Positions 1-23,258 of a DNA stretch of 64,000 nt are shown here, piece after piece (the stretch's first letter is position 1; the number at the start of each line of letters is the position of its first letter). A program made the translations under genes and the position numbers. Under the pieces are notes generated by a model. The model had not been told where the DNA came from and ran no database searches. It saw only the letters and a program-made list of their open reading frames with translations. This DNA is from a virus. The DNA lies in the IMG/VR virus record IMGVR_UViG_3300025872_000050, positions 14,348 to 78,347 of that record; one strand, given 5' to 3'.

Positions 1-2580
1 GGTCAGCCGTTCATCGAGATCGACGACAAGACGTGGTGGCTCGAAGCCTGGGACGGCCGCACAGCTACGCTGACGGACGAGGGCGGCGAGCAGAAGTGGC
101 TGACCAAGGATCAGATCAGCGCTATCGTGATGCCCAAGTCGGACGCGTCGCGTGACCCGATGCGCAACGCGATCCCGGTCGGCAAGCGCGTCACGATGCG
201 CTTCGAGAAGCGGCGGCTCGACGATCCCGAGATGCGCCGCGGCACGGTCGTCGAGGTACGCCCTGGCGACCAGCGTGACCCGCGCGTCGGCACGGTCGTC
301 GAGTGGGACCACGCTCCCGGCCAACAGCGCGAGTACCGCATGGGCGAGGTCCGCGAGCTTCGCGAGGGTGAGGACGTGCCGAAGTTCGACTCCGACAAGC
401 CGATCCGCGCGAAGTCGTCGGGCAAGACGCTCGCGGACTTCAAGCCCGGCGATATCGTGATGCTGGGCGGTCGCGACCACACGACGCCGCGCGAGCAGAA
501 GCGCATGGCCGAAGGTTGGGCACTGCTGAACGGGCCGCATCAGATCCTGGGCACGGCGCCGAGTGGCGTCCGCGTCAAGCACCTGGAGTCCGGCCACGAG
601 TACACGCGCCTCCCGATCAACTCCGCCACGCTGATGCCGCCGGGGCAGATCGACTCGCTCAAGCTCCCCGGCCGGCGCAACCGCAAGGGCGAGGTCGGCA
701 CGGGCCTCACCGAGTGGGACATCTTCGAGAAGCCCAAGTACGAGAAGCGCAAGGCGGAGGCCAAGAAGCTGCGGCCCAAGGGCGCTACCGAGGTCGTCAT
801 GACGACTCGCGGTCCTCAGCGGGTGCGTCCGCCGTTCGACAGCTCGCGCGAGGTCGCCGCTGTCAGCGCCTGGAAGACCCCGGGTGGGGAGCAGATCAAG
901 GCCAAGCACGTCTCGCGCTTCAAGTACGAGGTCTCGATCGGCAGGGAGGGCGGCTTCCACATCACCGCCCGCAACAAGACCGAGGCGAGAGACCTCTTCA
1001 AGGAGGGCATGGCCCGCGGCGACTGGGGCAACACGTGGAAGGAGCGCTACCTCGGGAAGAGCGTGCTGCCGTTCGACGACGCCAAGGAGCCCGAGCACCC
1101 CGAGATCGCGGCGGTGCGCAAGGCGATCAAGAAGCGCGAGCGCGAGCTTCTCAAGCAGTACGAGGTGGTCGACGAGGACGATAAGGAGCTCAAGCGGCTC
1201 CGCAACAAGCTCCGCCGCATGACCGCTCCCGAGAAGGCCCCGTTCACGGTCTACACCAAGGCGCGCAAGGAGCGGGACCTCGAGAAGGGCAACCAGATCA
1301 TCCGCAACAAGCTCGGTCGCGCCGGCAACCGCCCGCCTCGCCAGGTGCGCATGCCCTGGACGCCTCCCACGATGGAGGACAAGATCGGCTCGGTCTACCT
1401 CCACGAGGAGATCGTGGGTACGCGGTCGAGGTTCTTCGCCCGCATCTCGCTCAAGAACGGCACGACGTACGACGTCGACATCCCCGCGGAGGACCTCTAC
1501 CGTGGCGGCGACTACGTCCGTTCCCGCATGGACGAGCTCAATGCCCGTCGGCAGCGCGTGGGCGAGGCAGCGGTCAGCAACCTCAACCCGCGGTACGCCG
1601 ACGTAGACAGCAAGACGCTCGCGAAGTGGCTCCGCTACTGGACGCGCCAGGGCAACAACCAGGACGAGGTCGCGTCCCTCAACAAGGAGCTCGCGGCTCG
1701 CAAGGCCACCGGAGCTGTGGAAGGCGACTTCGGGCTCAGGCGGCAGCTCGGGAAGATCAACGCGGGACGGCTCGAGGCGGCCCGTGCGGCGCTCAACCCC
1801 GAGTGGAAGGACGTCGACGACCGGACGCTGACCAAGTGGATGCGGTACTGGGCACGCAAGAAGGACCAGAACGCGGTCAAGAAGCACGAGCTTGAGCTCG
1901 AGAGCCGGCGCATCATCCGCAACATGGAGGGCGACGGCGCTCTCGCTGAGGCCCTGAGCGGGCTCGGCGTTCCGGTCGACAGCTCCAAGTACCCGTCCTG
2001 GACGGCTGAGAGCAAGGTCGTCGAGCATCTCAAGACGAGCCCCGGCGGCACCGCGTACGAGGTGCTGAAGGCCGTCGGTCTGGACCCGTACGACCCCAAC
2101 AACAAGTCGATGCTCAAGGACCTCGCAGATCGCGGCGTGCTCAAGACAGGCATCGCCTTCGTCGGTGAGCGGCGGTTCAGGGAGACGACGTACAGCCACA
2201 ACCCCTACTACGAGGACCCGAACACGCCGCCGGCGATCCCGGACGAGTACGCGCTTCGCGAGCCCGAGTACTCGAACGACGGCCTGCGCAAGGCGGCCCG
2301 GTTCCACGGCATCACGCCCGACAACCCGCAGGTCGGCGACGGGAGCGCGCCGGACTACTCCTACGAGACGCTGCAGGACAAGCTGATGAGCGACGGGTTC
2401 CCCGTCCCGCTCAGCAAGGCGAGCGAGGCGCAGCTGCGGCAGTGGGCCGCAGCTCTCATGGAGTCGCTCCAGGACGAGTACGACCGTGGCGACGCGGACT
2501 GGGGTCGCGGCGAGGAGCGTCGCAAGCTCCTGGCGGCGGTGCTCACGGAGCTCAACAAGAGGTTCGTCCCAAAAGCGTAA
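1..2580 (+). CDS. Large polyvalent-type head-module protein (5' truncated by the window); contains a repeated DVDxxTLxKWxRYW helical motif and a winged-helix-like segment
   Basis: Frame +1 is open from base 1 (GQPFIEIDDKTWWLEAWD...) to TAA 2578-2580. Modular charged sequence lying upstream of the scaffold and capsid genes. Confidence 0.7.
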   Translation, partial: GQPFIEIDDKTWWLEAWDGRTATLTDEGGEQKWLTKDQISAIVMPKSDASRDPMRNAIPVGKRVTMRFEKRRLDDPEMRRGTVVEVRPGDQRDPRVGTVVEWDHAPGQQREYRMGEVRELREGEDVPKFDSDKPIRAKSSGKTLADFKPGDIVMLGGRDHTTPREQKRMAEGWALLNGPHQILGTAPSGVRVKHLESGHEYTRLPINSATLMPPGQIDSLKLPGRRNRKGEVGTGLTEWDIFEKPKYEKRKAEAKKLRPKGATEVVMTTRGPQRVRPPFDSSREVAAVSAWKTPGGEQIKAKHVSRFKYEVSIGREGGFHITARNKTEARDLFKEGMARGDWGNTWKERYLGKSVLPFDDAKEPEHPEIAAVRKAIKKRERELLKQYEVVDEDDKELKRLRNKLRRMTAPEKAPFTVYTKARKERDLEKGNQIIRNKLGRAGNRPPRQVRMPWTPPTMEDKIGSVYLHEEIVGTRSRFFARISLKNGTTYDVDIPAEDLYRGGDYVRSRMDELNARRQRVGEAAVSNLNPRYADVDSKTLAKWLRYWTRQGNNQDEVASLNKELAARKATGAVEGDFGLRRQLGKINAGRLEAARAALNPEWKDVDDRTLTKWMRYWARKKDQNAVKKHELELESRRIIRNMEGDGALAEALSGLGVPVDSSKYPSWTAESKVVEHLKTSPGGTAYEVLKAVGLDPYDPNNKSMLKDLADRGVLKTGIAFVGERRFRETTYSHNPYYEDPNTPPAIPDEYALREPEYSNDGLRKAARFHGITPDNPQVGDGSAPDYSYETLQDKLMSDGFPVPLSKASEAQLRQWAAALMESLQDEYDRGDADWGRGEERRKLLAAVLTELNKRFVPKA

Positions 2581-2598
2581 GCCCGGCTGAGATCGGGC
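2568..2598 (+). promoter_or_regulatory. Candidate -1 programmed ribosomal frameshift signal (C CCA AAA, 6-nt spacer, stem-loop)
   Basis: In-frame X XXY YYZ heptamer at 2568-2574, then GCGTAA, then hairpin GCCCGG-ctgaga-TCGGGC at 2581-2598. The -1 frame is open to 4220. Confidence 0.7.
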
Positions 2599-4220
2599 CC
2601 ATCGACCAAGCGAGGCCGCCTGACGTCCCGTGGGTTCACGGGGAGCGTGACGTGGCCCCGCTAGAGCCGATCGACAACGCTCTCAGGAGAGCTTCCATCT
2701 GGGTCGACGGGCTGAGCCGCTTCATGGCTCTCGACATCTACGTCGACCTGCGCGAGGAGAAGGGCTACTCCCCGGACGAGGGGATCCGCGAAGAGGACAA
2801 GCCGATCCTGCTGGCGCGGTACCGCGTCTGGCTTCTGCAGAACGGCGTCACCGCTGAGGGCATCAGGGCCCTGGATCGCAGCGAGATCACGTTCGACGAG
2901 GCCAAGATCGACCGGACCTACATGAACGTGATGCAGCTTCCCGACGACCCGCGCCTCTCGCCCAAGGCCACCGCACGAAGGCAGGGCAAGGCGTTCCGCG
3001 GGACGGCGAGCAAGGGCCGGTTCACCGCTCGCTCGGTGACGAAGCCGCATCAGCACCACCTGTTGACGGTCAAGACGCCTCAGTTCGACAAGTCCACGAT
3101 GCCGCAGTTCGATGAGGCGAAGGTTGGCTTGGACCCCAAGCCGATGGACGAGGGCCTCATCCCAGCGCACATCAAGGACGACGTCTACTTCAACGTCGCG
3201 ACCATGGTCGAGCACGCAGAGGTTGACCAGCCTACGTTGGTGCGGTGGGTCGCGTACTGGAGAAAAGAGGCGCGCAAGGCCGAACGTGCGCTCAGCGCAG
3301 ATCCGCGAAACCTCCAGCACGCGGACGACTACGACTACGCGATGTCCGCAGTCAAGTCCCTACTTGCACTGATGTACGCGAAGGGGTACAATGTCACATA
3401 TGAGCTTGATCCTGACAACGTGTTCCTCGCTCCCCTCGTCAAGCTCCAGCGCCAGGCTGAGAAGGCCATCGACAACGGCGACATCGGGCAGTTCAACCAG
3501 TACCTCGACGAGCTCGATCGCCGAGCTCAGGAAGACCCAGTCTTCATGAACGTGGTCTCGACCACCCTCGGCACGCTCAACGACGAGTGGCGCAGCTGGG
3601 CGGACGACATCAGGTGGGGCTACGTGCATCAGACCGACGTGCTCGGCAACGCCGCTCCGACGCTGAACAGGATCGGCCTCAGCCCCGGTGAGAGCGGGAT
3701 GCACGCGACCGCGATCCACGAGCTCGGCCACATGCTCGACTACAGGCTCGGCTCCCTCCTCTTGGAGGAGAGGCTGGGTCAGATCAGGCTGATCACGCGA
3801 GAGGCGCTCTCAGAGGTCCCGCTGGACGTCTTGAACCACTACCACACGCGGCTCGGGCGTGCGATGCGAGACTGGAAGGAGATCGCCAACTTCAAGCGCT
3901 TCACGATCAAGCACCTCGAGCCGGCCATCGGCAAGAAGGACGCCGAGTACCTCATGCGCTGGCGCGAGATCTGGGCCCGAGCCATGGAGATGTACGCGGC
4001 TCAGACCCTCGGCGGCCAGTGGAAGCGAGACCTCGACAACAAGCGCGCACGCTACGGCGAGGTCGGCTTCGAAGCGATCTACTGGAACCCCGAGGGCGAC
4101 GAGTGGAAGGACCTGTTCGAGGCCATCCAAGAAGTGCTCGACGCCGCCGGCATCGAGCTGACGGCCGTTCAGGTCGGTGAGTTCAGCATCCCAGTCCTGC
4201 GCATCAGGAGGAGGTCGTGA
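2574..4220 (+). CDS. Zincin metallopeptidase / LPD1-like domain protein, probably a -1 frameshift extension of the upstream ORF (alternative independent GTG start at 2652)
   Basis: HExxH motif (IHELGHMLD) plus downstream EIWARAMEMY, typical of LPD1/MPTase domains of phage polyvalent proteins. Shares the TLxxWxxYW motif with the upstream ORF. Confidence 0.65.
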   Translation, partial: SVSPAEIGPIDQARPPDVPWVHGERDVAPLEPIDNALRRASIWVDGLSRFMALDIYVDLREEKGYSPDEGIREEDKPILLARYRVWLLQNGVTAEGIRALDRSEITFDEAKIDRTYMNVMQLPDDPRLSPKATARRQGKAFRGTASKGRFTARSVTKPHQHHLLTVKTPQFDKSTMPQFDEAKVGLDPKPMDEGLIPAHIKDDVYFNVATMVEHAEVDQPTLVRWVAYWRKEARKAERALSADPRNLQHADDYDYAMSAVKSLLALMYAKGYNVTYELDPDNVFLAPLVKLQRQAEKAIDNGDIGQFNQYLDELDRRAQEDPVFMNVVSTTLGTLNDEWRSWADDIRWGYVHQTDVLGNAAPTLNRIGLSPGESGMHATAIHELGHMLDYRLGSLLLEERLGQIRLITREALSEVPLDVLNHYHTRLGRAMRDWKEIANFKRFTIKHLEPAIGKKDAEYLMRWREIWARAMEMYAAQTLGGQWKRDLDNKRARYGEVGFEAIYWNPEGDEWKDLFEAIQEVLDAAGIELTAVQVGEFSIPVLRIRRRS

Positions 4221-4873
4221 GTGGAACTTCGTTTGCCTCCAGAGTCTTCGGTCGAAGACGTGATCGACGAACAGGGGAACCCGATGCCGGTGCCGCAGGA
4301 CGACTGGCCGCTGCCGACGGGCCCCTACAAGCCTTCGCCCAAGACGGGCGAGGATCCCGACCCGACGAACCCACGGAAGGAGGTGTAACCATGCCGGAGG
4401 ACATCATGGAGCTGTCGCAGGAGGACCTCGAGCGGATCATCGACGAGCGGGCCGACGCCCGCCTCGCCGAGCTCGAGGCGTCCCGCCGCGACGAGCTCGA
4501 GGAGGCGCAGATGGAGCTCGCGCGCACGCGGAACGAGGTGCGTGAGATGCGGGTCCAGGCTCGCCGGACCGAGCTCGAGCTGTCGGGCTATCCGCCCGCA
4601 GTCGTCGCGACCGCGTGCGAGCTGCTGCTCGCATCGGACGACGAGGCGGTCCTCTCGCTCTCGATCGAGGGCGAGCAGCGCTACCTCACGGTGCAGGACG
4701 TGGTCGAGCGCATGCTCGCCGCGATCCCCGCCGACTCGCTCCTGCTCTCCCAGCCCCGCGTCAAGCAGGGCGACGAGAAGCCGGAGGAGGAGAACGAGGT
4801 CGATCCCGCCGCGGCAGCCGAGAAGCTGCTGTCGGATCTCGGACGCGGTTCCGAGACCACCCCACTCATCTAG
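4217..4873 (+). CDS. Capsid scaffolding protein (two SD-supported starts, GTG 4217 and ATG 4391)
   Basis: Acidic coiled-coil protein directly upstream of the decoration and capsid genes. AGGAGG lies before both starts. Confidence 0.65.
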   Translation: MSGTSFASRVFGRRRDRRTGEPDAGAAGRLAAADGPLQAFAQDGRGSRPDEPTEGGVTMPEDIMELSQEDLERIIDERADARLAELEASRRDELEEAQMELARTRNEVREMRVQARRTELELSGYPPAVVATACELLLASDDEAVLSLSIEGEQRYLTVQDVVERMLAAIPADSLLLSQPRVKQGDEKPEEENEVDPAAAAEKLLSDLGRGSETTPLI

Positions 4874-4891
4874 GAAGGGAGGTGACATAAC

Positions 4892-5395
4892 ATGGCAGGA
4901 GTTGTGAAGAAGACCGAGTTCATCTACGCCGACGAGATCCTCAAGGGTCCCAGCGGCCTCGATGACGTCCGCTCGTACGTGCTCGACGCGAGCCTCTGCA
5001 ACACGTCGATCTCCGGCGTGGCGGGCCGGTACTTCATCCCCGCCGGCAGCGTGCTCGTGAAGAGCGACTCGTGGACGGCGGACAAGAAGGTGGCTCCGCT
5101 GTACATGAACGACGGCACGGCCGGCATGGGCGCCCTTCTGGGGTCCGGCGGCGGTGGCGCGTACGTGGCCGGCGACATCATCGGCATCCTGGGTCGCGAC
5201 GTCGAGCTCATCGTCGACGACAGCGGTACGACCCCGGGCGCCGTGTCCGATCAGGACGTCCCCGTGATCTGGTTCAACGCGCACTTCGACATCTCGGCCC
5301 TCTGGGGCTACAACGATGCCGTCGACGCGGGGACCCACGGCGACGACAACTCGACCATCGTCAAGGCGGCTCTGCCGCACTGCGTCTTCAGCTAG
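4892..5395 (+). CDS. Head decoration / capsid cement protein
   Basis: IPAGSVL and GILGRDV motifs; position between scaffold and major capsid; strong SD. Confidence 0.65.
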   Translation: MAGVVKKTEFIYADEILKGPSGLDDVRSYVLDASLCNTSISGVAGRYFIPAGSVLVKSDSWTADKKVAPLYMNDGTAGMGALLGSGGGGAYVAGDIIGILGRDVELIVDDSGTTPGAVSDQDVPVIWFNAHFDISALWGYNDAVDAGTHGDDNSTIVKAALPHCVFS

Positions 5396-5412
5396 AAAGG
5401 AGGTGACATCAC

Positions 5413-6501
5413 ATGGCACTGGGTGACTTCTGGGACCAGCAGGTCCTGACGTTCACGGTCCGCCGCAACATCGAGATGGAGGCCAACTCCTCCCCTGGCG
5501 CGGCGGCACCGGCGTATGTCGGCCAGGGCGCGGAGAACCGGGCGTACTACGGAGCGAACATCGCTCCGCTCGTCACGGTCCAGTCGCGTTCCTCCCGCAT
5601 CCGCATCACCGACGTCCTCCCGCATGGCATGGGCCAGTTCAAGGCACGGAGCGCGACTCCGCCGCTGATGAAGACCAAGCCCAAGTCGCGCGAGGAGGCC
5701 ATCGAGCTCGTCCTGCTCGAGGAGATGGAGCGCTTCGACTCCGAGGAGTGGCTCTCCCTCAACTCGGGTGACGAGCGGATCGCCCGCGGCGCGATGCTCT
5801 CGCTCGTGGACCGCCTGACCATCATGGCCAAGCGGAACGCCACGCTGACGGAGTGGATGCGCTGGGAGGCGTTCAAGGGCGGGTTCACCGTCACGTTCCC
5901 CGACGGGTCCGAGGAGACGTTCGACTACGACTTCGACGTCTCGCACACCCCGACGGCGGGCACGGCGTGGACCGACCACGTCAACTCCGACCCGGTCGAG
6001 GACCTCTTCACGTGGTCCATCGTCGGCGCGGACGACGCGGGCGAGTACCTCAAGAACGTCCACCTCAACAGCAACACGTTCCGGCACGTCCAGCTGAACG
6101 AGAAGATCGCCGGCTACCTGAGCTCGTACGGGCGCAGCATCATGCGTCCGACGGTCGCCGACATCAACTCGCTCATGCGGGCGGGCTCGAACTGGGAGGT
6201 CCTCGACGCAGGCTACCTGCCCGAGGGCGCGACCAACCGCCAGCTCACGAAGTGGCTGCCGGACAACCGCGTGCTCTTCACGACGGGCTACACGCTCTTC
6301 GGCCAGAGGATCGCGGACGTCGCGGACGGTCAGGTCCTCGTGGGCGGCGACTCCACGTCGCCTCCGTCGATCCAGCAGGGTGCGCAGTCGGAGATCATCA
6401 CGAACCCGTTCACGAAGAACGTGTTCCGGCGCTACGCCACGGCTCGCGTCCCCCGGCTGTACTTCCCGGAGGCCTTCCTCTACGCCACAGTCGGCGCCTA
6501 G
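5413..6501 (+). CDS. Major capsid protein (HK97 fold, lambda gpE-like)
   Basis: 362 aa with the E-family pattern (TEWMRWEAF..G, AWTD..SDP.ED, C-terminal VPRLYFPEAFLYATV); synteny. Confidence 0.85.
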   Translation: MALGDFWDQQVLTFTVRRNIEMEANSSPGAAAPAYVGQGAENRAYYGANIAPLVTVQSRSSRIRITDVLPHGMGQFKARSATPPLMKTKPKSREEAIELVLLEEMERFDSEEWLSLNSGDERIARGAMLSLVDRLTIMAKRNATLTEWMRWEAFKGGFTVTFPDGSEETFDYDFDVSHTPTAGTAWTDHVNSDPVEDLFTWSIVGADDAGEYLKNVHLNSNTFRHVQLNEKIAGYLSSYGRSIMRPTVADINSLMRAGSNWEVLDAGYLPEGATNRQLTKWLPDNRVLFTTGYTLFGQRIADVADGQVLVGGDSTSPPSIQQGAQSEIITNPFTKNVFRRYATARVPRLYFPEAFLYATVGA

Positions 6502-6514
6502 GAGGTGATCTAGC

Positions 6515-6973
6515 TTGGCCGAAGAGAAGTTCGTCAAGCCGATCAGAGCGACGGCTGTGCATCTGGCAAGCGGCGGAAGCGTCGCCCTCATGCCAGGTCA
6601 GCCGATCGCCCTGTCGGAGCTCGCTCCACACGTCGTGGAGGCTCTGGAGAGCGGCGACCCGTTCACCAGCGCGATCTTCGAGGACTCCAGCGAGGACGAG
6701 TTCAAGGCGTACGAGGCCGGTCTTCCGGTCCCGCCGCCGAAGGACTTCGTCCGCAATCTCGGTTCGATGACCCTGCCGCAGGCCAACGAGGCCGGCGAGC
6801 AGGTCGGATCGCCCGAGACGCAGGAGGGTTCCGAGGAGCTCCCGGCTCCGGCGCCCCGAGGCCGCGGGCGCAAGAAGCCACAGCAGGAGGAAGAGCAGCA
6901 GCCCGACGCACAGCCCGAGCCCGAAGCCGGTCAGGCCGAGGAGCCCGAGGCTGCACCTGAGGGAGAGGGCTGA
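6515..6973 (+). CDS. Hypothetical virion-module protein with an acidic low-complexity C-terminus
   Basis: TTG start after GGAGGTG; follows the major capsid gene. Confidence 0.6.
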   Translation: MAEEKFVKPIRATAVHLASGGSVALMPGQPIALSELAPHVVEALESGDPFTSAIFEDSSEDEFKAYEAGLPVPPPKDFVRNLGSMTLPQANEAGEQVGSPETQEGSEELPAPAPRGRGRKKPQQEEEQQPDAQPEPEAGQAEEPEAAPEGEG

Positions 6974-7518: not shown

Positions 7519-8084
7519 TCGACGTCCAGCTCGAGGAGATCGAACGCGCCCTTCTGCTGCAGGTCAAGAACGGCCTGCCGCAGGCGTTGCTCGACATCGA
7601 GTCAGAGTACACCTCTCTCGATGCGGCGTTCTTTGCGGAGCTAGGGGTCTCGCCCGTCCCGCTCACGCCGCTCCCACCGCCCGCGCTGTACCTCAACGGG
7701 CACCATCCGTACATCCTGGAGAGGCCGTTGACCGACTTCCCCAACGTCGTGGTCAACTGCACCTCGCATCCCTCCGGCGACGCCGGCGGGTTTGACCAGA
7801 CGGAGGAGATCGGTTCGTCCGCATACGTGGAAGTGTTCTGCGTGCACGAGGACCCTTCCACCGTCAACAGGATGATCAAGCGGTACGCCAAGGCGCTTCA
7901 TCGCGTCGTGTCGGCCGACTTGACTCTGGGAGGAGCGGCGACGCTCACCCCGGAGCTATCGCCGGAGGTGCTCTTGTCCAACCAACAGGCTGGACGAGTC
8001 GACAACCTGCACGACGAAGTCGTGTACTTCCAGGGCACCAAGCTGGAGTACACCTTCGTCTCAACGACAGGGACATGGTGGTAG
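7515..8084 (+). CDS. Putative tail terminator / head-tail joining protein
   Basis: ATGA overlap with the upstream gene; FPNVVV...DLTLGG pattern; upstream of the major tail gene. Confidence 0.5.
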   Translation: MIDVQLEEIERALLLQVKNGLPQALLDIESEYTSLDAAFFAELGVSPVPLTPLPPPALYLNGHHPYILERPLTDFPNVVVNCTSHPSGDAGGFDQTEEIGSSAYVEVFCVHEDPSTVNRMIKRYAKALHRVVSADLTLGGAATLTPELSPEVLLSNQQAGRVDNLHDEVVYFQGTKLEYTFVSTTGTWW

Positions 8085-8092
8085 GAGGAAAC

Positions 8093-8338
8093 GTGGCAAA
8101 GAAGAAGTCGTACGTGTTCGTCGGTTGCGCCGACCCGCGCAACAAGACGGCACGCATCAAGGGCAGCTTCGGAGAAGTCGCCCTAGGCGAGACGATCGAG
8201 CTCGAGGACGCAGACATCGAGATGCTGCGCACCAAGGGCTTCGTCTTCAACGAAGACGGTCTGGAGGAGCCGGCCCCGGCCGACGATCCCGAGCCCGTCG
8301 TCGACAACGACGACCCCTCTGGAGAGGAGGTGAACTAG
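8093..8338 (+). CDS. Small hypothetical virion-module protein
   Basis: GTG after TAGGAGG; typical codon usage. Confidence 0.6.
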   Translation: MAKKKSYVFVGCADPRNKTARIKGSFGEVALGETIELEDADIEMLRTKGFVFNEDGLEEPAPADDPEPVVDNDDPSGEEVN

Positions 8339-8342
8339 CAGC

Positions 8343-8951
8343 ATGGGATTCCACAGAGTCGACACGAGCAACGTCAGGCGCGGCGCAGGCCGCATCATGT
8401 ACGCGGCCATCGGCACGACCAAGCCGGCCGACATCGCCGACGTCATCAACGTGACGTCGTACGACGCGGTGTCTCCGTGGGAGGATCTCGGGGCGACCCG
8501 CGAGGGCATCCAGATCACCATCAACAACACGGAGTCCGGGTTCGACGTGGACCAGGTCGCAGGCCTGATCGACGTGGCTCCGGAGGAGTGGGAGGTCTTC
8601 GTGACCACCCGCCTCGCGGAGATCACGCTCGAGAACATGGTCCTCGCATGGGAAGGCGCGGCGATCACGACCGACACCGCGCCGACACCCGACGAGCGCG
8701 AGACCGGCTTCGTCGGAGCGACGACGTACACCGAGCGCCGCATGGCGGTGCTCTTCAGGGAGCCGAAGGCGGGCGGGATCACCGCTCACTTCTTCCACCG
8801 CGCAGTCCGAGCCCCACAGGAGTCGGGACTCGACTACCGGCGGGGAGGCGACCCGATGACGATCCAGGTGCGGTTCCGCATCCTGGCGGACGACACGGAG
8901 ACCGATCCCGCGTTCGCGTTCTTCCGCGTCCGCGAGCAGATCATCCCGTAA
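8343..8951 (+). CDS. Major tail (tube) protein
   Basis: NVRRGAGRIMYA...WEDLGATREG motif typical of siphoviral tail tube proteins; synteny. Confidence 0.8.
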   Translation: MGFHRVDTSNVRRGAGRIMYAAIGTTKPADIADVINVTSYDAVSPWEDLGATREGIQITINNTESGFDVDQVAGLIDVAPEEWEVFVTTRLAEITLENMVLAWEGAAITTDTAPTPDERETGFVGATTYTERRMAVLFREPKAGGITAHFFHRAVRAPQESGLDYRRGGDPMTIQVRFRILADDTETDPAFAFFRVREQIIP

Positions 8952-8973
8952 CCCCAGAACAAGGAGCAGAACA

Positions 8974-9504
8974 GTGGCTAACCGAAGGGCAGCCGCTCGC
9001 CAATCAGCGGCGAGGACGTGGAACATCGGCGGCGTCGACTTCATCCAGGACGAGCTCACGTTCTTCGAGAAGAACGACGTCTTCGCGCTCATCCTGGACG
9101 CGCTTCAGGAGTCGATCTCCTCCGGCAAGACGGATCTCAGCAAGGTCGCCGAGGCGTTCGAGTTCATCGAGTCTCAGGACGGCCGCAACGCGCTCATGAG
9201 CCTCAGGCAGGGCGAGCGCGATCCCAAGGCGGTCGAGGCCGCCATGGGCATGGGGCAGTTCCTGCTGCAGCTCGTCAGCACCGCCCCCGGCATCCTCAAG
9301 GAGCTGTACCTCATCGTGCTGAGCGTCCCCGAGCACGATCGGGCGCAGGTCTCGCGCATGCTCGACACGATCGACGACGACACCGGGTTCGGCATCATGG
9401 AGCTCTTCGTCGAGCAGAACGCGGAGACGCTGCGGGATTTCGGGAAGCGCTGGTGGGAGACCGCCAAGTCGATGGTGACAACGAGCCAGGCGCCCGTGTC
9501 CTGA
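8974..9504 (+). CDS. Tail assembly chaperone (gpG-like)
   Basis: Lies between the major tail and tape measure genes, with an overlapping -1 frame ORF downstream. Confidence 0.7.
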   Translation: MANRRAAARQSAARTWNIGGVDFIQDELTFFEKNDVFALILDALQESISSGKTDLSKVAEAFEFIESQDGRNALMSLRQGERDPKAVEAAMGMGQFLLQLVSTAPGILKELYLIVLSVPEHDRAQVSRMLDTIDDDTGFGIMELFVEQNAETLRDFGKRWWETAKSMVTTSQAPVS

Positions 9505-9818
9505 CGCCGCTGGAGCGCGTAGAGGAGATGATGGCCGCCTACGGCATGACGTACAACGAGGTAGGCGGTCTGCCGGCTTCGCGCTTCGAACAGCTTTGGA
9601 AGGCCTACGCCATCCGTACGTCTCTCGACAAGCTCGATCGAGAGTACGACCGCCAGCGCACGACTGTCCAGAGCAGCATGGGTGAGCCCGAGAAGATCAA
9701 GGAAGCGCTCGAAGATCTTCATCACGCGTACCTCGCGCAGCGAGACGAGATCGCGTCCGGGAGGGCCTTCGAGGCCCAAGAGGAGCGCTTGGAAGACGAG
9801 ATCTGGTGGCCGAGATAA
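9435..9818 (+). CDS. Tail assembly chaperone -1 frameshift extension (gpT-like); candidate slippery site G GAT TTC at 9435-9441
   Basis: The -1 frame reads FREALVGD...MAAYGMTYNEVGGLP.. to TAA 9818; canonical G/GT arrangement. Confidence 0.6.
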   Translation, partial: GFREALVGDRQVDGDNEPGARVLTPLERVEEMMAAYGMTYNEVGGLPASRFEQLWKAYAIRTSLDKLDREYDRQRTTVQSSMGEPEKIKEALEDLHHAYLAQRDEIASGRAFEAQEERLEDEIWWPR

Positions 9819-9840
9819 CTCGGACGAGTATATTACCGTA
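9815..9840 (+). promoter_or_regulatory. Motif B copy (ATAACTCGGACGAGTATATTACCGTA), putative late promoter/operator
   Basis: Near-identical to 26888-26913 and similar to 41846-41871. Confidence 0.5.
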
Positions 9841-9930
9841 CTCGTTACGCCTGGTCCGCTCCGTTCGAGCTGATTCGGTCTAGGGGTACCGTAGACTGGT
9901 GCCCGATACGCGAAAACCGGCTTAGAGGAG

Positions 9931-10386
9931 GTGGTGCGCGTGCTTGTGACGGTCCAAGTGGTCGGTGACGAGCTCGTCGTCGCGAAGCTGCGCACGAGCG
10001 AAGCGGTGATCCGTGAGGAGTCGCGCTTCGCGATGGAGAAGACGCGCGACGTGCTCCAGGCGGCTCGCTTCGCCAACGTGCCGAAGGACACGGGCCTGCT
10101 CTCGAGCAGGCTCTCCGCGGACATCAAGGTCGATCGCTCGGTCAAGCGGGTCACGAGCGAGTACGGCTACGCGCCGCCGGCCGAGTACGGTCGGTTCGTC
10201 GACAAGGGCACCGGGGTCTACGGCCCGCTCAAGCGGCCGTTCATGGTGCGGCAGGGCACTAACGTTTACCTCCATCCGGGCATGGCCGGCCGCTACTTCG
10301 AGTCGCGGTCGCTGTACGAGACCCGAGGGCCGATGAAGGCCTTCTGGGGAGACGCCGGACGCCGGATCGCTGAGAGGCTCAACTGA
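9931..10386 (+). CDS. HK97 gp10-like tail completion protein
   Basis: PKDTGLL, YGRFVDKGTG and HPGMAGRYF motifs. Confidence 0.8.
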   Translation: MVRVLVTVQVVGDELVVAKLRTSEAVIREESRFAMEKTRDVLQAARFANVPKDTGLLSSRLSADIKVDRSVKRVTSEYGYAPPAEYGRFVDKGTGVYGPLKRPFMVRQGTNVYLHPGMAGRYFESRSLYETRGPMKAFWGDAGRRIAERLN

Positions 10387-13300
10387 TGGCCGACGTCATC
10401 GAGATCATCATCCGCGCGACGGACCTCGCGTCGGCCCAGATCGATCGCGTCGCCGACAAGATCGAGCAGCGCTTCGGTCGGCTCGAGCGCTCCTACGCGA
10501 GCCTCGGCAGCAAGACCAAGGACCTCGAAGACGACCACTTCCACCTCTCGCGCTCGCTCGACAAGACCGCCGACTCGATCGGCGACCTCGACAACGCGGT
10601 CAAGAAGTACACCGCCTCGGTCGACATCGCTGGCGATCGCACGGCCGCTTGGACGCGCCACATGGAGGGCATCAACTCCCCGATCAAGCGCGCGTCGTCC
10701 GAGCTCGGAGACTTCGACTCGATCCTGCGCCGCCACGGCGTCACGCTCGGCAACACCGACGTCGACCGCAACCGCTTCCAGCGCGCATGGCTCGCGATCG
10801 CCGACGGGATCATGAAGGCCGTGTCAGCGGCCACCGACTGGCTCAGCCTCAACATGGGGCCGAACCTAGCGGGGCTCGCGACGCACGCGAAGGGGCTGTC
10901 AGTCGCCTTCTCCGCGATCTCGACGGTGTTCCTCATCATCCTGGGTCTGGCGCCGCTCATCGTGGCCGCCATCGCGGCGATCACCATCGCGGTCGAAGGG
11001 CTCGCCGGCGTGATCGTAGCGCTCGGCGCAGCCATCGGCGTGCTCGTAGCCGCTCTGTCGACGCTGGTCTCGATCGCGGGCGTGCTGCCTCTGGCCATGC
11101 TCGGCATGCTGGGGATCTTCGCCGCCATCGCGACCGTGATCGGGCCGGCGGTGACGCAGATCTTCGGTGGCGTCAAGGCTCTGGAGGAGGCTGAGGCCAA
11201 GGCCAAGGAGTCCGCGGCCGCCACGACCAAGGCCCAGCAGGAGGCGCAGGAGAACCTCGCTCGGATCAGGCGCAACGCCTCCGAGCGCGAGAAGGACGCG
11301 GAGACGTCCCTGGCTCGGCTCAAGCGCGACAACCGCGAAGAGGAGCTCAACGCGGAGCGGCGTATCGGGGACATCCGCGAGCGCGTCGCCAACGCAGTCG
11401 CAGCGGCCGAAGCGCGGCTCGCTCAGCTTCGACGGCAGAACGCGCTGCTCCAGACGGAGCTCGAGCAGGACCTCAACAACGCTCGGGCTGAGCTCGCCGG
11501 CCTCGAGACTCGAGGCGCCAGCCCAGCAGAGATCGCAGCCGCAAGAGCTCGCGTCGACGAGCGCGAGCTCGCGCTGAAGCTCTTCAACACCGGCAAGGAG
11601 AAGCAGGCCGAGGTCGAGGCGGCCAACGCCGTCAAGAAGGCCAAGAAGGACGGCCAGCGCGAACTCGCAGACGCGATCAAGCAGCTCGCGGTCACGATCC
11701 GCAACAACAACGAGCAGGAGCTCGACGCCGAGGTCCGGCTCACGCGCCTCAAGCGCAACAACCGCGAGGAGATCGCGGCGGCTGAGAAGCGCGTCCAGGA
11801 GGCGGCGGTCACGTCGGCTCTGGCGGCCAACACCGCGTGGACGCAGCTCGACGAGACGCAGCAGAGGATCGCGCGCCGCATCAAGGACATCAAGGACCGC
11901 TTCGACGAGCTCTCCGAGCCGACGCGCAACAAGTTCCTCGCGTTCATGGAGCGGTTCCTGGACGTGGTCGACAAGCGGCTGCCGGGCGCGGTCTCGGTCA
12001 TCGACAAGTTCACCACGTCGCTGATCTCCATGGGCGACGCGTGGCTCAAGCTGAGCGAAGACGAGATCTTCAGCGACAACTTCAACACGAACGTCGACAC
12101 GGCGAACGAGGGCCTGCTCGACGTCAACCACGCGTTCATGGGGATCGCGGACGGGATCAACGCCGTGCTGGCGGCCGGTCAGCCGTTCTACGAGTGGCTC
12201 GGGAACCAGATCGCGGCGTTCGGCGACTACGTCTCCGAGAGCGCTCGCGTCAACCAGGCCAACGGCGAGATCGCCAACTTCTTCGACGCGTCCAAGAAGG
12301 TGCTGGAGGTCTTCGGCCGCACCCTCCGCGACGTCTTCTTCGCGCTCAAGAACATCCTGGAGATCGGCTTCAACGTCGGCTTCGACGCCCTCTTCGGTGA
12401 GAAGGGCTTCGGCGGCATGACCAAGAAGTTCCGCGAGTTCACCGAGTCGACCAAGGGCCGCAACGCGATCCGGGAGTTCTTCAAGGACGCGATCCCCGTC
12501 GCGAAGGAGACGTTCGGGCTGATCGGCGACATCCTCGGAGCGATCGCGAAGCTCGGGCGTGAGGCCATCCGTGGCGGCGAGGAGAGCCCGCTCTTCAAGG
12601 CGTTGAGCTTCCTGCGCGAGTTCTTCCAGAGCCTGCCCGATCGCATCCGCCGCTTCAATCAGCAGTGGGGTCCGACGGTCAAGAACGTCATCGCCGCGGT
12701 CATCGAGCTCGGCAAGGCATTCAACAAGCTCGCTGAGTTCATGAAGCCGGTGCTGAACGTCTTCGCGTTCATCTTCTACTGGATCGGGAAGATCCTGCAG
12801 TCCAAGTTCGTGCAGTGGGTGCTCCTCATCGTCGGCGCGATCGCAGCCGCGCTCGTGGTGGCTCTCGCGTTCGCAACCGGAGTCGGTGAAATCGGGGTCG
12901 GGATCTACGCGCTCATCACGGCCATCGCGGTCTTGGGCGTCTACTGGATCAAGGTCTGGGACCAGATCATCAGCTGGATCAAGCACTTCTTCAAGTGGAT
13001 GGGCGCGCTGTTCGACAAGTTCGACGAGTGGCTCACACGCTTCACCGAGTGGTGGGCCGACATGTACTTGGCGGTCCGGCAGTTCACCATCGACGCGTTC
13101 AAGGCGCTAGTCGGCTGGCTCGCCGACATCAGGAACTTCTTCACGAGCACGATCCCCAGCTTCGCCAGCACCGCAGCCAACGCTGTGGCCAACTTCTTCA
13201 AGGCCGTGTTCGACAAGATCGGCGAGCAGCTCGACGGCGTCTGGAAGCGGATCACCGGCTGGTGGGACGACATCAAGAACTTCTTCACGAACACGATCCC

Positions 13301-13913
13301 AGGCTTTGCGGGACGCGCCGCCGAAGCCTTCGGCGGGCTGTTCAAGACGATCGGCAACGCGGCCATCGCCGCGCTGAACGGCCTGATCGGAGCGCTGGAG
13401 ACCGGCATCGACCTCGTCTTCCAGGCGATCAACGAGATCCTCGAGCCCGCGCGCAAGGTCGGCGGCCTGATCAACAAGCTCGCTCCCGGCCCGGACATCA
13501 ACATCCCGAAGTTCGGAGAGGACACGATCGAGCTGCCACGTGTCCCTGCTCTCGCAGAGGGCGGCATCGTCCCCGCGACCCCGGGCGGCGTCTACCGCGT
13601 CGCGGAGGGCGGGTACCCGGAGGCGGTGCTCTCCCTGGACCCGAAGTACGCGGCGCGCACCATGTCGCTCGTCCAGAGGGTCATGTCGCACCTGGCCGGC
13701 ACCGCTCCGATGATCTCAGCCGCGACCAAGCTGAGCCCGGCGTCGCTGAACCGCAGGCTCCCGTCCTTCGCAGCGGGCGGGCTCGTGCAGGCCGCCGCCG
13801 TGGGCGGCAACACGAACCAGTTCAACATCGAGATCAACACGACGCAGGTGGAGCTGGACATCCCCTACATCATGAGGAGGCTGGAAGTGGAAGTAGGTGG
13901 CGTCCTTGCTTGA
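10386..13913 (+). CDS. Tape measure protein
   Basis: 1175 aa, Ala-rich coiled coil, hydrophobic stretches, W/F periodic repeats, C-terminal LAEGGIV...AEGGYPEAV. Confidence 0.9.
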   Translation: MADVIEIIIRATDLASAQIDRVADKIEQRFGRLERSYASLGSKTKDLEDDHFHLSRSLDKTADSIGDLDNAVKKYTASVDIAGDRTAAWTRHMEGINSPIKRASSELGDFDSILRRHGVTLGNTDVDRNRFQRAWLAIADGIMKAVSAATDWLSLNMGPNLAGLATHAKGLSVAFSAISTVFLIILGLAPLIVAAIAAITIAVEGLAGVIVALGAAIGVLVAALSTLVSIAGVLPLAMLGMLGIFAAIATVIGPAVTQIFGGVKALEEAEAKAKESAAATTKAQQEAQENLARIRRNASEREKDAETSLARLKRDNREEELNAERRIGDIRERVANAVAAAEARLAQLRRQNALLQTELEQDLNNARAELAGLETRGASPAEIAAARARVDERELALKLFNTGKEKQAEVEAANAVKKAKKDGQRELADAIKQLAVTIRNNNEQELDAEVRLTRLKRNNREEIAAAEKRVQEAAVTSALAANTAWTQLDETQQRIARRIKDIKDRFDELSEPTRNKFLAFMERFLDVVDKRLPGAVSVIDKFTTSLISMGDAWLKLSEDEIFSDNFNTNVDTANEGLLDVNHAFMGIADGINAVLAAGQPFYEWLGNQIAAFGDYVSESARVNQANGEIANFFDASKKVLEVFGRTLRDVFFALKNILEIGFNVGFDALFGEKGFGGMTKKFREFTESTKGRNAIREFFKDAIPVAKETFGLIGDILGAIAKLGREAIRGGEESPLFKALSFLREFFQSLPDRIRRFNQQWGPTVKNVIAAVIELGKAFNKLAEFMKPVLNVFAFIFYWIGKILQSKFVQWVLLIVGAIAAALVVALAFATGVGEIGVGIYALITAIAVLGVYWIKVWDQIISWIKHFFKWMGALFDKFDEWLTRFTEWWADMYLAVRQFTIDAFKALVGWLADIRNFFTSTIPSFASTAANAVANFFKAVFDKIGEQLDGVWKRITGWWDDIKNFFTNTIPGFAGRAAEAFGGLFKTIGNAAIAALNGLIGALETGIDLVFQAINEILEPARKVGGLINKLAPGPDINIPKFGEDTIELPRVPALAEGGIVPATPGGVYRVAEGGYPEAVLSLDPKYAARTMSLVQRVMSHLAGTAPMISAATKLSPASLNRRLPSFAAGGLVQAAAVGGNTNQFNIEINTTQVELDIPYIMRRLEVEVGGVLA

Positions 13914-14400
13914 GAAGCCGATCGTCTTCAACGGGTTCACCCTCAACAACAAGGCAGTCCGCGACGCGCTTAGGTCCACCGCTCCGTACTACGACTTCTG
14001 GGTGCGCAAGACCGACGGCCTCTTCGGCGGGCGGCAGATCAACCAGGGCGAGTACAACATCCCGCGCAAGCTCGGCGACTACGCGATCAACTCCGACGTC
14101 GGCGGTCAGCGGATCACGCTGTCGGGCGTGCTCAAGGCGCGCAACCTCCAGTACCTGCGAGCCGGAGGCCGCGCGTTCGAGCAGGCGCTCTGGGACGGCG
14201 GCTACCACCAGCTTCGGTTCCAGCTCTGGAACGAGCCGCAGCTCTACTACAACGCCCGCGTCTCGCAGGACCTCGTCATGAGCGAGGAGCAGCAGAACGG
14301 GACGATCTGGCAGCGCGTGTTCACGGTGCAGTTCTACGCCGCCGATCCCAGGACCTACCGCGTCAGCGACGGGAGCGTGTACCCAGCATGGCGAACGTGA
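13897..14400 (+). CDS. Distal tail protein (Dit-like)
   Basis: RITLSG...F.AADP motif; immediately after the tape measure. Confidence 0.75.
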   Translation: MASLLEKPIVFNGFTLNNKAVRDALRSTAPYYDFWVRKTDGLFGGRQINQGEYNIPRKLGDYAINSDVGGQRITLSGVLKARNLQYLRAGGRAFEQALWDGGYHQLRFQLWNEPQLYYNARVSQDLVMSEEQQNGTIWQRVFTVQFYAADPRTYRVSDGSVYPAWRT

Positions 14401-21668: not shown

Positions 21669-23258
21669 ATGAGCTACGAGAAGGTCAGAGACGGCGGCAC
21701 GGTGCTCGTGATGCTCGGCGAAGACGTCAAGGCGATCTTCACCAGCGAGGTCTTGGCCGACGCCTGGATCCGCGACAACCCGGCGCCCGCAGAGCTCGCG
21801 CTCTCGGTGGCGGACTTCGACGAGAGCAAGCACCCGCGCTGGCCCAAGGGCACGCCGGCTGGCAAGGGCGGCAAGTTCCGCGAGGTCGCGGACCTCTTCG
21901 ATCTGGTGAAGAACTCGATCAGCGGCAGCTTCCGTTTCAAGGACGGGAGCACGACGTACGAGGTGCGACGCCATCTCGGCACAGTCACCGCCTTCAAGGT
22001 CGGCAGCGGCGGGAACCTCGGACGACCGATCCCGCTTCACAAGGACGACACATGGCAGGCGTTCCTCGTTCGCATGGACGGGCGTTCCACAGACGCAGAC
22101 GCCATCAATGCTGGCTGGCCCGACAAACATGCAGCCGCATGGCTCAACAGCGGTCGAGAGAAGTTCTCCGATGCAGCGGTCAAGAAGGCTGCTGACAAGA
22201 TGGAGAAGACCGGCTTCAACGCCGATGAGGTCGCGAAAGTTCGCGCGCTTGGTTCAACAGAGCAGAGCGCGGCCGATGAGATGGCGCGCAATCGGCAGAT
22301 CCGCGCCGATCGCGAGAAGGAAGCCCGGGCGAACGCGAACCCCAAGCTGTCCGAGTTCGATCGGCTGATCAAGCCGCGCATGAAGGACCCTCAGAGCGCG
22401 GACTTCTACTCGCAGATCGACTACGCGGGGCTCGCCGAGGACAACGGCGTGAGCGAGGACGAGATCGTCCGCGCGGTCGCGTCCATGACCGGAGCCGACT
22501 TCAACACGACCGAGAAGGGCGCCACGCGAGACGAGGATATCGGCCACGTCACGCTCGGCGGTTCCGGTCGACGGACCAAGCTCGACATGGGCGAGTGGGA
22601 CCGCGCTACGTTCGACGCGCTCATCGAGGACGCGAGCGGCGGCCGGAGGCCCAGCGGCAGCCCCGAGCGCAAGCACTACGCCGATCGCGAGAAGGAAGCT
22701 TCGATGTCCGAGTTCGATCGGCTGATCAAGCCCCGCATGAAGGACCCGGATAGCGCTGACCTCTACTCGCAGATCGACTACGCCGGCCTCGCCGAGGACA
22801 ACGGCGTGAGCGAGGACGTGATCGCTGTGGCCATCGCGACCATGAAGGACGCTCGCTTCGAGGAGACCGACACCCCAGCCGCTATCGACGACGACATCGG
22901 CCGCGTCATGATCGGCAAGCTCGACATGGGCGAGTGGGACCGCACTACGTTCGACACGCTCGTCCAAGACGCCAAGGCCAACAAGCGCGGCAACGGGAAG
23001 CCGGCTGTCGTCGTCGAGGACGTCGACATCATGAACGAGCGCATCAGCAACCCGTACAAGCTGGAGGAGGGCCTCAACGCGCGCTTCAAGCGCGTCCGCT
23101 TCAAGCTCGTGAAGGAGCGCGGTCCGGGCGGCGGCAACCCGACGTTCAACATCGAAGGTGCTCCGGCCGACGTCGCGAAAGCTCTGCAGCGGCTCGGCTA
23201 CGACAAGGGCGACTTCGCGGAGATGTTCCCCGAGCTTGCGAAGGCGCTCAAGGCGTGA
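21669..23258 (+). CDS. Putative packaged/internal virion protein with an FDESKHPR..GGKF motif and an internal duplication
   Basis: HPR...GxF motif seen in phage head-associated proteins; two near-identical ~100-aa repeats. Confidence 0.55.
   Translation: MSYEKVRDGGTVLVMLGEDVKAIFTSEVLADAWIRDNPAPAELALSVADFDESKHPRWPKGTPAGKGGKFREVADLFDLVKNSISGSFRFKDGSTTYEVRRHLGTVTAFKVGSGGNLGRPIPLHKDDTWQAFLVRMDGRSTDADAINAGWPDKHAAAWLNSGREKFSDAAVKKAADKMEKTGFNADEVAKVRALGSTEQSAADEMARNRQIRADREKEARANANPKLSEFDRLIKPRMKDPQSADFYSQIDYAGLAEDNGVSEDEIVRAVASMTGADFNTTEKGATRDEDIGHVTLGGSGRRTKLDMGEWDRATFDALIEDASGGRRPSGSPERKHYADREKEASMSEFDRLIKPRMKDPDSADLYSQIDYAGLAEDNGVSEDVIAVAIATMKDARFEETDTPAAIDDDIGRVMIGKLDMGEWDRTTFDTLVQDAKANKRGNGKPAVVVEDVDIMNERISNPYKLEEGLNARFKRVRFKLVKERGPGGGNPTFNIEGAPADVAKALQRLGYDKGDFAEMFPELAKALKA
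22304..22970 (+). repeat. Intragenic direct duplication (about 22304-22630 and 22679-22970)
   Basis: SEFDRLIKPRMKDP.SAD.YSQIDYAGLAEDNGVSED and KLDMGEWDR.TFD occur twice with high nucleotide identity. Confidence 0.9.

Follow-up and report, generated by a model that had tools for sequence, protein, structure and literature searches.

The 64,000-nucleotide (nt) window analysed here, bases 14348-78347 of the 78,347-bp linear IMG/VR record IMGVR_UViG_3300025872_000050 (estimated completeness 87%), covers part of the head module of an uncultured freshwater phage, and the present account concerns the junction between two of its long open reading frames (ORFs), a giant gene for a predicted prohead protease (ORF1) and a gene for a putative LPD1-like HExxH protein (ORF2). 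The 3' part of ORF1 fills window positions 1-2580; the whole gene encodes 1584 amino acids (aa) and starts with an ATG behind AGGAGG at window position -2174 (record 12173). ORF2 (2652-4220) encodes 522 aa from a GTG at 2652. Both genes and the junction features described below lie on the + strand, which carries nearly all genes of the record (GC content ~65%). Two codons ahead of the ORF1 stop stands a slippery heptamer, C CCA AAA, and the frame reached by a slip of one base backwards stays open through all of ORF2. A good candidate explanation, as yet unproven, is programmed -1 ribosomal frameshifting in the last codons of the giant prohead-protease gene; we give it equal credence and doubt.

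The Predicted Prohead Protease and Its Extension

ORF1 starts with a conserved N-terminal module and the prohead-protease fold; an acidic region, a Cys motif and a "SKHPRWPK..GKGG.F" tag come next, and the extension that completes the protein has no known domain. It belongs to no Pfam or PHROG family, and protease profiles (Pfam S78, S77 and Mu-like_Pro, and the PHROG protease families) were unmatched up to an E-value of 5. Homologues from metagenomes are 312-568 aa long and cover residues 1 to ~555 only. An AlphaFold2 (AF2) model built on five homologues reached a predicted local distance difference test (pLDDT) score of ~80 over about residues 127-285, and comparison of this segment by VIA-align gave T4 gp21 as the top match (Z 8.9, 127 aligned residues, root-mean-square deviation 3.8), together with the herpesvirus proteases of varicella-zoster virus (Z 6.1) and human cytomegalovirus (Z 4.8), with unrelated rows at 4.9 or below. 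Foldseek returned the same families, weakly (probability 0.69). H200, S256 and H279 are invariant in the five homologues and are candidates only for catalytic equivalents. The order of genes, with the portal (record 7644-9206), a MuF-slot protein, ORF1 and, further downstream, the decoration slot and the capsid gene, is that of actinophages such as Gordonia phage Austin; between the ORF1 protease and the Austin protease there is no BLASTP similarity, and gene order alone agrees. Because of the fold match to T4 gp21 and the position in the protease slot by synteny, we assign ORF1 as a prohead maturation protease, the predicted structure showing an N-terminal capsid maturation protease of the herpesvirus assemblin/T4 gp21/HK97 gp4 fold.

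An earlier reading made from the letters of the DNA, hereafter the sequence-only reading, had described ORF1 as a head-module protein, which is borne out, and as a generic polyvalent effector, in place of which we find a prohead maturation protease with an extension of ~1,280 aa. No domain is recognisable in the ~1,280 aa past the protease domain, no homologue of the C-terminal 485 aa was found among proteins of 871-2772 aa, and sequence searches of the PDB gave no match for this locus.

Past about residue 556, the first feature of the extension is a tag of 37 aa, SKHPRWPK..P.GKGG.F....D..D......ISG, at ORF1 residues 567-603 (upstream of the window, at record 13871-13981). The same tag recurs far from the head module, at window 21816-21926, where it forms the start of the mature part of a 529-aa protein (gene 21669-23258; 54% identity, E 2e-10). 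Its role may lie in packaging or processing.

The Slippery Heptamer and the -1 Reading Frame

In frame 1, ORF1 ends with the codons GTC (2566), CCA (2569), AAA (2572) and GCG (2575), followed by the TAA stop that can be read at 2578-2580. The heptamer C CCA AAA occupies 2568-2574 in the X XXY YYZ register of the ORF1 frame. The -1 frame is open from 2169 to a TGA at 4218-4220, that is, for 548 codons past the slip and into ORF2, and its GC content at third codon positions (GC3) is 0.85-0.95 from 2700 on. Within the ORF2 frame, no start codon occurs between a GTG at 2442, deep in ORF1 (where GC3 is 0.35-0.55), and the GTG at 2652. A slip would produce the predicted junction peptide ..RFVPK-SVSPAEIGPIDQAR and a predicted ORF1-ORF2 fusion of 2131 aa, which corrects an earlier figure of at least 1400 aa for the long form, as ORF1 runs off the window and is itself 1584 aa long.

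Both codons of the heptamer are rare in this genome, AAA accounting for 20 of 900 Lys codons (2%) and CCA for 62 of 978 Pro codons (6%). An AAA rather than an AAG codon in the heptamer suits hosts with a separate tRNA-Lys(CUU). On both strands of the 78,347-bp genome, CCCAAAA occurs once, at 2568-2574, and the in-frame expectation for this heptamer was 0.05 by synonymous-codon resampling (58 genes, ~20,000 codons, 1000 trials). The same resampling, applied to all XXXYYYZ heptamers in which Y is A or T, gave an expectation of 12.1 in-frame sites for the genome; two are observed, and the lowest count in the 1000 resamplings was three. This 6-fold depletion suggests that in-frame slippery sites are selected against, the present junction excepted, and of the two that are found, one stands two codons ahead of a stop and is followed by a gene that lies in the open -1 frame. 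The recoding signals named in the sequence-only reading (an in-frame C CCA AAA 6 nt before a GCCCGG/TCGGGC stem-loop, a rare AAA codon and a -1 frame open for about 548 codons) are therefore real, correctly placed by the coordinates 2568-2574 and 2581-2598, and, as regards the heptamer, statistically unusual for this genome.

An assembly error at the A run was also considered. Logan contigs from two sequencing runs of two studies span the junction without any difference and give the four-A form as the consensus, in a comparison that can miss a minority five-A variant and in which the two runs may be the record's own source. An identical ORF1 protein is found on three contigs and an identical ORF2 protein on two. 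Since the contigs of the two runs agree and identical proteins recur on several contigs, an assembly indel, which the earlier reading had asked about, is unlikely.

RNA Structure and the Spacer

Downstream of the heptamer lie two hairpins. Hairpin 1 (2581-2598) begins 6 nt past the heptamer, at a canonical spacing, and consists of a 6-bp stem, GCCCGG (2581-2586) pairing with TCGGGC (2593-2598), around a 6-nt loop, with a free energy of -8.6 kcal/mol. The 90 nt 3' of the heptamer are among the 1.7% most structured windows of the genome, owing to hairpin 2 (2609-2662; -34.5 kcal/mol, z -3.3, reached by 1 of 200 shuffles), which encloses both the Shine-Dalgarno (SD) sequence of ORF2 (2640-2645) and its GTG (2652-2654). 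Among 56 gene starts, the start region of ORF2 has the most negative minimum free energy, and the cost of opening its SD sequence and start, 22.3 kcal/mol against a median of 9.1, is the second highest of the 56 genes. Free initiation at ORF2 should be poor, because its sole candidate SD sequence and start codon sit inside hairpin 2. This hairpin begins 35 nt past the heptamer, which is too far for a classical frameshift stimulator; it would be out of reach for ribosomes halting at the TAA and would be unwound by ribosomes that had shifted frame.

The spacer (2574-2651) forms, in the -1 frame, a candidate linker S-V-SPAEIGPIDQARPPDVPWVHGERD with neither a start codon nor a stop. At 71 nt, the gap between ORF1 and ORF2 is the largest of the head module, in which the remaining gaps range from -10 to 23 nt. 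Across the spacer, GC content by codon position has its minimum at position 2 of the -1 frame. Neither an Rfam family nor a tRNA was found at the junction.

ORF2, a Putative LPD1-like HExxH Protein

As started from the GTG at 2652, the 522-aa ORF2 protein consists of a domain that we call X (residues 1-78), an LPDDP module (91-140), a TLxxWxxYW helix, an HELGH motif (3717-3731, residues 356-360), an EIWARA motif (3966-3983) and a conserved basic C-terminal tail. Among 5.8 billion clusters, homologues of ORF2 amount to itself and one other protein, P0004 (520 aa, 42% identity), and an exhaustive HMMER search with ORF2, run on 1.84 billion representatives, brought in no more than nine further proteins, 60-82 aa long, which match the module at residues 91-140. 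HELGH and E439 of RWREIWARA are both invariant between ORF2 and P0004. In the MPTase domains of polyvalent proteins, the zincin pattern is an HExxH helix followed by a helix whose conserved Glu is the third zinc ligand (PMC5512222); with its invariant HELGH and downstream-helix Glu, ORF2 therefore fits this pattern.

LPD1 (PF18796) is the top Pfam match of ORF2, though below threshold (E 0.11; 13 bits, where the cut-off is 27), and P0004 matches the same family with 17.7 bits and an E-value of 0.0038. In the ESM Atlas, LPD1 occurs in 24 of the 30 clusters nearest to ORF2 (score 0.96), a result that we take as a lead only. No MPTase model matched ORF2. The zincin/LPD1 identity put forward from the letters alone stands, then, as far as the two motifs and a lead to LPD1 go, and falls short of the Pfam threshold and of any MPTase model; at the level of a lead, the C-terminal part of ORF2 appears LPD1-like. 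The C-terminal third also matches phrog_4529, annotated "minor head protein and DNA pilot", with an E-value of 3e-5. An AF2 model of ORF2 has a mean pLDDT of 38 and is unusable for the fold.

The TLxxWxxYW motif is present in both ORFs, as had been noticed before, with two copies in ORF1 (~1612-1641 and ~1822-1851) and one in ORF2 (3234-3260). In its fuller form, L.P.....D...L..W..YW.R, it is a short helix motif like ORF2's own LPD1 core helix. What the two ORFs have in common is relatedness of segments, which tandem paralogy explains equally well, and the further claim that they look like one protein does not follow from it.

The LPDDP module (residues 91-140, window 2922-3071) is a 50-aa unit, V..LPDDPRLS..A.RR....RF.PRSVTK.HQHHLLT, which also occurs on metagenomic contigs as free proteins of 60-82 aa that belong to no known family (L003:1700-1846, L004:883-1050, L005:5001-5153); one of these free-standing mini-proteins adjoins a tape-measure gene. 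In ORF2 the module is flanked by a duplicated FDEAK (direct repeat 3071-3088/3095-3112). Since it is N-terminal in P0004, with domain X after it, and is preceded by domain X in ORF2, the module has moved, and it looks like a mobile mini-protein that has been fused into larger genes.

Possible Programmed Frameshifting and Its Alternatives

In the mechanism that we favour, most ribosomes would end at the TAA (2578-2580), and at C CCA AAA a minority, carrying tRNA-Pro on CCA and a scarce tRNA-Lys(UUU) on AAA, would move back by one base, aided by slow decoding of the rare AAA, by hairpin 1 at a distance of 6 nt and by the nearby stop. The shifted ribosomes would translate a Pro-rich linker of 24 codons, crossing on their way the strong hairpin that hides the ribosome-binding site of ORF2, and would append all of ORF2 to ORF1, yielding the 2131-aa polypeptide as a protease-cargo-LPD1-like HExxH protein. 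We infer that, through such a fusion, the metallopeptidase-like module would enter the procapsid in a low and constant proportion to the protease; in addition, some ORF2 may be made alone, at a low level, from the GTG at 2652. The biological rationale is that an enzyme module acting inside the head would need a ride into the procapsid, and that the protease is packaged.

A number of observations weigh against this frameshift, and many of them favour instead two ordinary, separate genes, in which case ORF1 would end at its TAA, ORF2 would be initiated at its own SD sequence and GTG, hairpin 2 would keep a low-copy minor head protein scarce, and the heptamer would be a coincidence of two rare codons; we regard this as a serious possibility, if a somewhat doubtful one. 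The GTG at 2652 follows GGGGAG (2640-2645) at a correct spacing of 6 nt, with an SD duplex of -7.6 kcal/mol that is close to the genome median of -7.5 (the duplexes of its head-module neighbours, at -11 to -13.6 kcal/mol, are stronger), and gene finders give ORF2 as a protein of 522 aa. The homologue P0004 stands alone, and its homology to ORF2, in domain X, starts at residue 2 of the GTG-started protein; because P0004 has its own Met at the module boundary, ORF2-like proteins can evidently exist by themselves. No protein of the fused ORF1-ORF2 type occurs among the 1.84 billion representatives, and no DNA of relatives was found in viral contigs (searched with ORF2, an ORF2+P0004 profile, an ORF1 N-terminal profile and the LPDDP module) or in genome contigs, which leaves the frameshift without comparative support. 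The spacer is poor as coding sequence: its codon-usage score in the -1 frame lies at the 3.5th percentile of coding windows and at the 99th of off-frame windows, the score of frame 1 is nearly equal, and the 24 codons match nothing, P0004 included. Hairpin 1 is ordinary by itself, 18% of 30-nt genome windows being equally stable, and no well-spaced SD-like stimulator lies 10-14 nt upstream of the heptamer. Lastly, in naive resampling, 27% of trials had at least one slippery heptamer no more than 5 codons from a gene end. This naive figure ignores the 6-fold depletion and the need for the right frame, and scaling by both brings it to roughly 1% or less per genome, a chance of coincidence that is small, yet should not be neglected, since the finding was picked out of a very large scan, in which some coincidences are to be expected. 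Separate genes would also leave to chance that the two rare codons CCA-AAA fall precisely where they form the site, next to the most occluded gene start of the genome, by folding energy, and a gap that is unusually long for a head module.

The remaining explanations seem to us far less probable. One of them, which we consider improbable, holds that the two genes were once a single frame, split by a 1-nt deletion in the A run (five A's to four, A runs being hot spots for indels), and that any fusion would now arise only through unselected, low-level slippage. The two frames indeed lie one base apart at the four-A run, where a single added A would fuse ORF1 and ORF2; the -1 frame of the spacer holds no stop, the L..W..YW.R helix motif occurs in the C-terminal part of ORF1 as well as in ORF2, and the whole block resembles an insertion into a protease-scaffold gene (described below). 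The four-A form is, however, the consensus in the contigs of both runs and so is fixed and no rare variant, the rare AAA codon would still be required in an ancestral CCA AAA AGC, the presence of hairpin 2 and of an SD sequence and GTG at a domain boundary would be left unexplained, and no fused relative is known. Hardly credible, to our minds, is a different kind of coupling, whether by transcriptional slippage on the A run, by read-through of the TAA to the TAG at 2660-2662 with re-initiation at the GTG at 2652, or by RNA processing or termination at hairpin 2. Frame 1 is open from 2581 to that TAG and overlaps the GTG region, and hairpin 2 is significantly stable; but it is well established that productive polymerase slippage needs a longer run than four A's, TAA is the least leaky stop in bacteria, the hairpins are not followed by a U tract, a search of 2000-4600 gave neither terminator-like nor promoter-like sites, and the junction has no Rfam match.

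The Scaffold Gene and an Apparent Insertion

Downstream of ORF2 lies ORF3 (4391-4873, + strand), which encodes a scaffold-like protein (E 4e-17 to residues 230-342 of P0021) from an ATG behind AAGGAGGTG. In the relatives P0018-P0021 of ORF1, one polypeptide of ~500 aa holds both the protease domain and, C-terminal to it, a scaffold-like domain. Given that the scaffold domain is fused in these relatives and forms a separate gene here, ~6 kb of coding sequence (the ~1,280 aa of ORF1 past the protease domain, ORF2 and a 55-codon ORF) appear, by this comparison of proteins, to have entered an ancestral protease-scaffold gene and parted its two halves.

The 55-codon ORF (4221-4388, + strand) is Pro-rich (VELRLPPESS...PTNPRKEV) and begins with a GTG behind AGGAGGAGG (SD duplex -12.5 kcal/mol). 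It lies in the same frame as ORF2, directly 3' of the ORF2 TGA, and ends 2 nt ahead of the scaffold ATG; it would be either a separate small gene or an extension of ORF2 made by read-through of the TGA. The idea that ribosomes might shift by -1 a second time, out of ORF2 and into the scaffold gene, was considered and rejected, as the scaffold gene has a perfect SD-ATG start of its own at 4391, 4221-4388 codes for the small ORF in the frame of ORF2, and a slippery site is absent.

Neighbouring Genes and the Host

Past the scaffold gene, the protein encoded at 4892-5395 (+ strand) has no family match and is placed in the decoration slot by synteny with Gordonia phage Austin (protease, decoration, capsid), and the gene at 5413-6501 (+ strand) encodes a major capsid protein of the lambda gpE type (Pfam Phage_cap_E, E 6e-11; phrog_29, E 5e-16). 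Upstream of the window, the MuF-slot protein behind the portal (record 9160-11481) matches an ADP-ribosyltransferase (ART; E 6e-7) and a zeta-toxin kinase (E 9e-37) and has no MuF match. Farther upstream still, a giant ORF of >2,250 aa with Laminin_G_3 domains (E 4e-24) occupies record positions 1-6765 and runs off the 5' end of the record.

The two sequencing runs that hold the sequence are freshwater metagenomes. No close cultured phage was found, ORF1 and ORF2 being without a near-DNA or tblastn match in 50,697 phage records. The distant relatives of the portal protein (~23% identity) are nearly all from phages of Gordonia, Tsukamurella, Rhodococcus and Nocardia, and for that reason the host of this uncultured phage is likely an actinobacterium.

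Implications

If a programmed -1 frameshift does operate at the end of ORF1, then programmed frameshifting in phage structural genes would reach beyond tail chaperones and beyond the decoration domains of capsid and tail proteins. A whole enzyme-like protein would be joined to a capsid maturation protease, which would provide a simple way of loading a fixed, small number of copies of a potentially dangerous peptidase into each capsid. A full-text literature search on programmed frameshifting together with the capsid maturation protease returned only an unrelated case from an insertion sequence (IS) element. More speculatively, and in our view rather unlikely as a whole, the protease might serve as the carrier of a capsid-internal cargo system whose composition is set by recoding, with the same slip melting the hairpin at the ORF2 start and so controlling both fused and free forms; such a system would be a protease-based counterpart of the MuF polyvalent proteins, brought about by the ~6-kb insertion.

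Quite apart from frameshifting, the locus illustrates how cargo modules adding up to kilobases can divide and enlarge a compact protease-scaffold gene, and it points to a pair of short, reusable modules, one being the SKHPRWPK..GKGG.F tag and the other the LPDDP..HQHHLLT mini-protein.

Comparison With Known Systems

Polyvalent proteins with zincin-like MPTase and LPD domains include P1 DdrB and the N4 virion RNA polymerase (Iyer et al., 2017, PMC5512222), and the account of them in PMC5512222 makes no mention of frameshifting. The present locus shares with them a large head-associated protein, an HExxH motif with a downstream Glu helix, an LPD1-like segment and an adjoining MuF-slot ART/zeta-toxin protein; it differs in that the LPD1 match is sub-threshold, no MPTase model matches, the carrier would be a prohead protease rather than a MuF protein, and no other effector domain is recognisable. 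With respect to the protease itself, nested protease/scaffold genes are represented by lambda C/Nu3 and Mu I/Z. The ORF1 relatives P0018-P0021 likewise join a protease and a scaffold-like domain in one protein, whereas in the phage described here protease and scaffold stand ~6 kb apart and the scaffold is a separate gene with a strong SD sequence.

As regards the proposed recoding, Lactobacillus phage A2 makes a second capsid protein by a -1 frameshift (gp5A/gp5B; Garcia et al., 2004, cited in PMC5009743), and the related heptamer C_CCA_AAG is highly shift-prone in E. coli (PMC5009743). The sequence-only reading names C CCA AAA with a stem-loop, as at the present site, as the signal in the A2 major capsid gene. 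In A2 gp5A/gp5B, T3/T7 gene 10A/10B and a Listeria phage capsid, as in our candidate, the -1 slip lies near the last codons of a head-module gene and adds a minor, C-terminally extended form to a major short form. In those phages, however, the extension is short (often Ig-like), is attached to the capsid protein and lacks an independent start, whereas here a complete 522-aa protein with a candidate start would be attached to a protease. The G/GT frameshift of the tail assembly chaperones of tailed phages, reportedly the subject of work by Xu, Hendrix and Duda in 2004, is also a -1 recoding event in a structural operon that sets a fixed ratio of short to long product; it concerns a different gene and is backed by conservation across hundreds of phages, whereas the present junction is a candidate from a single phage. 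The presumed tail chaperone pair of this phage (window 8974-9818) has a -1 offset but no canonical heptamer, and its downstream ORF (9528-9818) has its own GAGGAG-ATG; the pair was dropped as an internal positive control for frameshifting because the heptamer is missing there. Should the frameshift at the end of ORF1 prove true, its mechanism would be that of A2 gp5A/gp5B or of G/GT, and what would be new is the gene concerned, a prohead protease, together with the size and the autonomy of the extension that it acquires.

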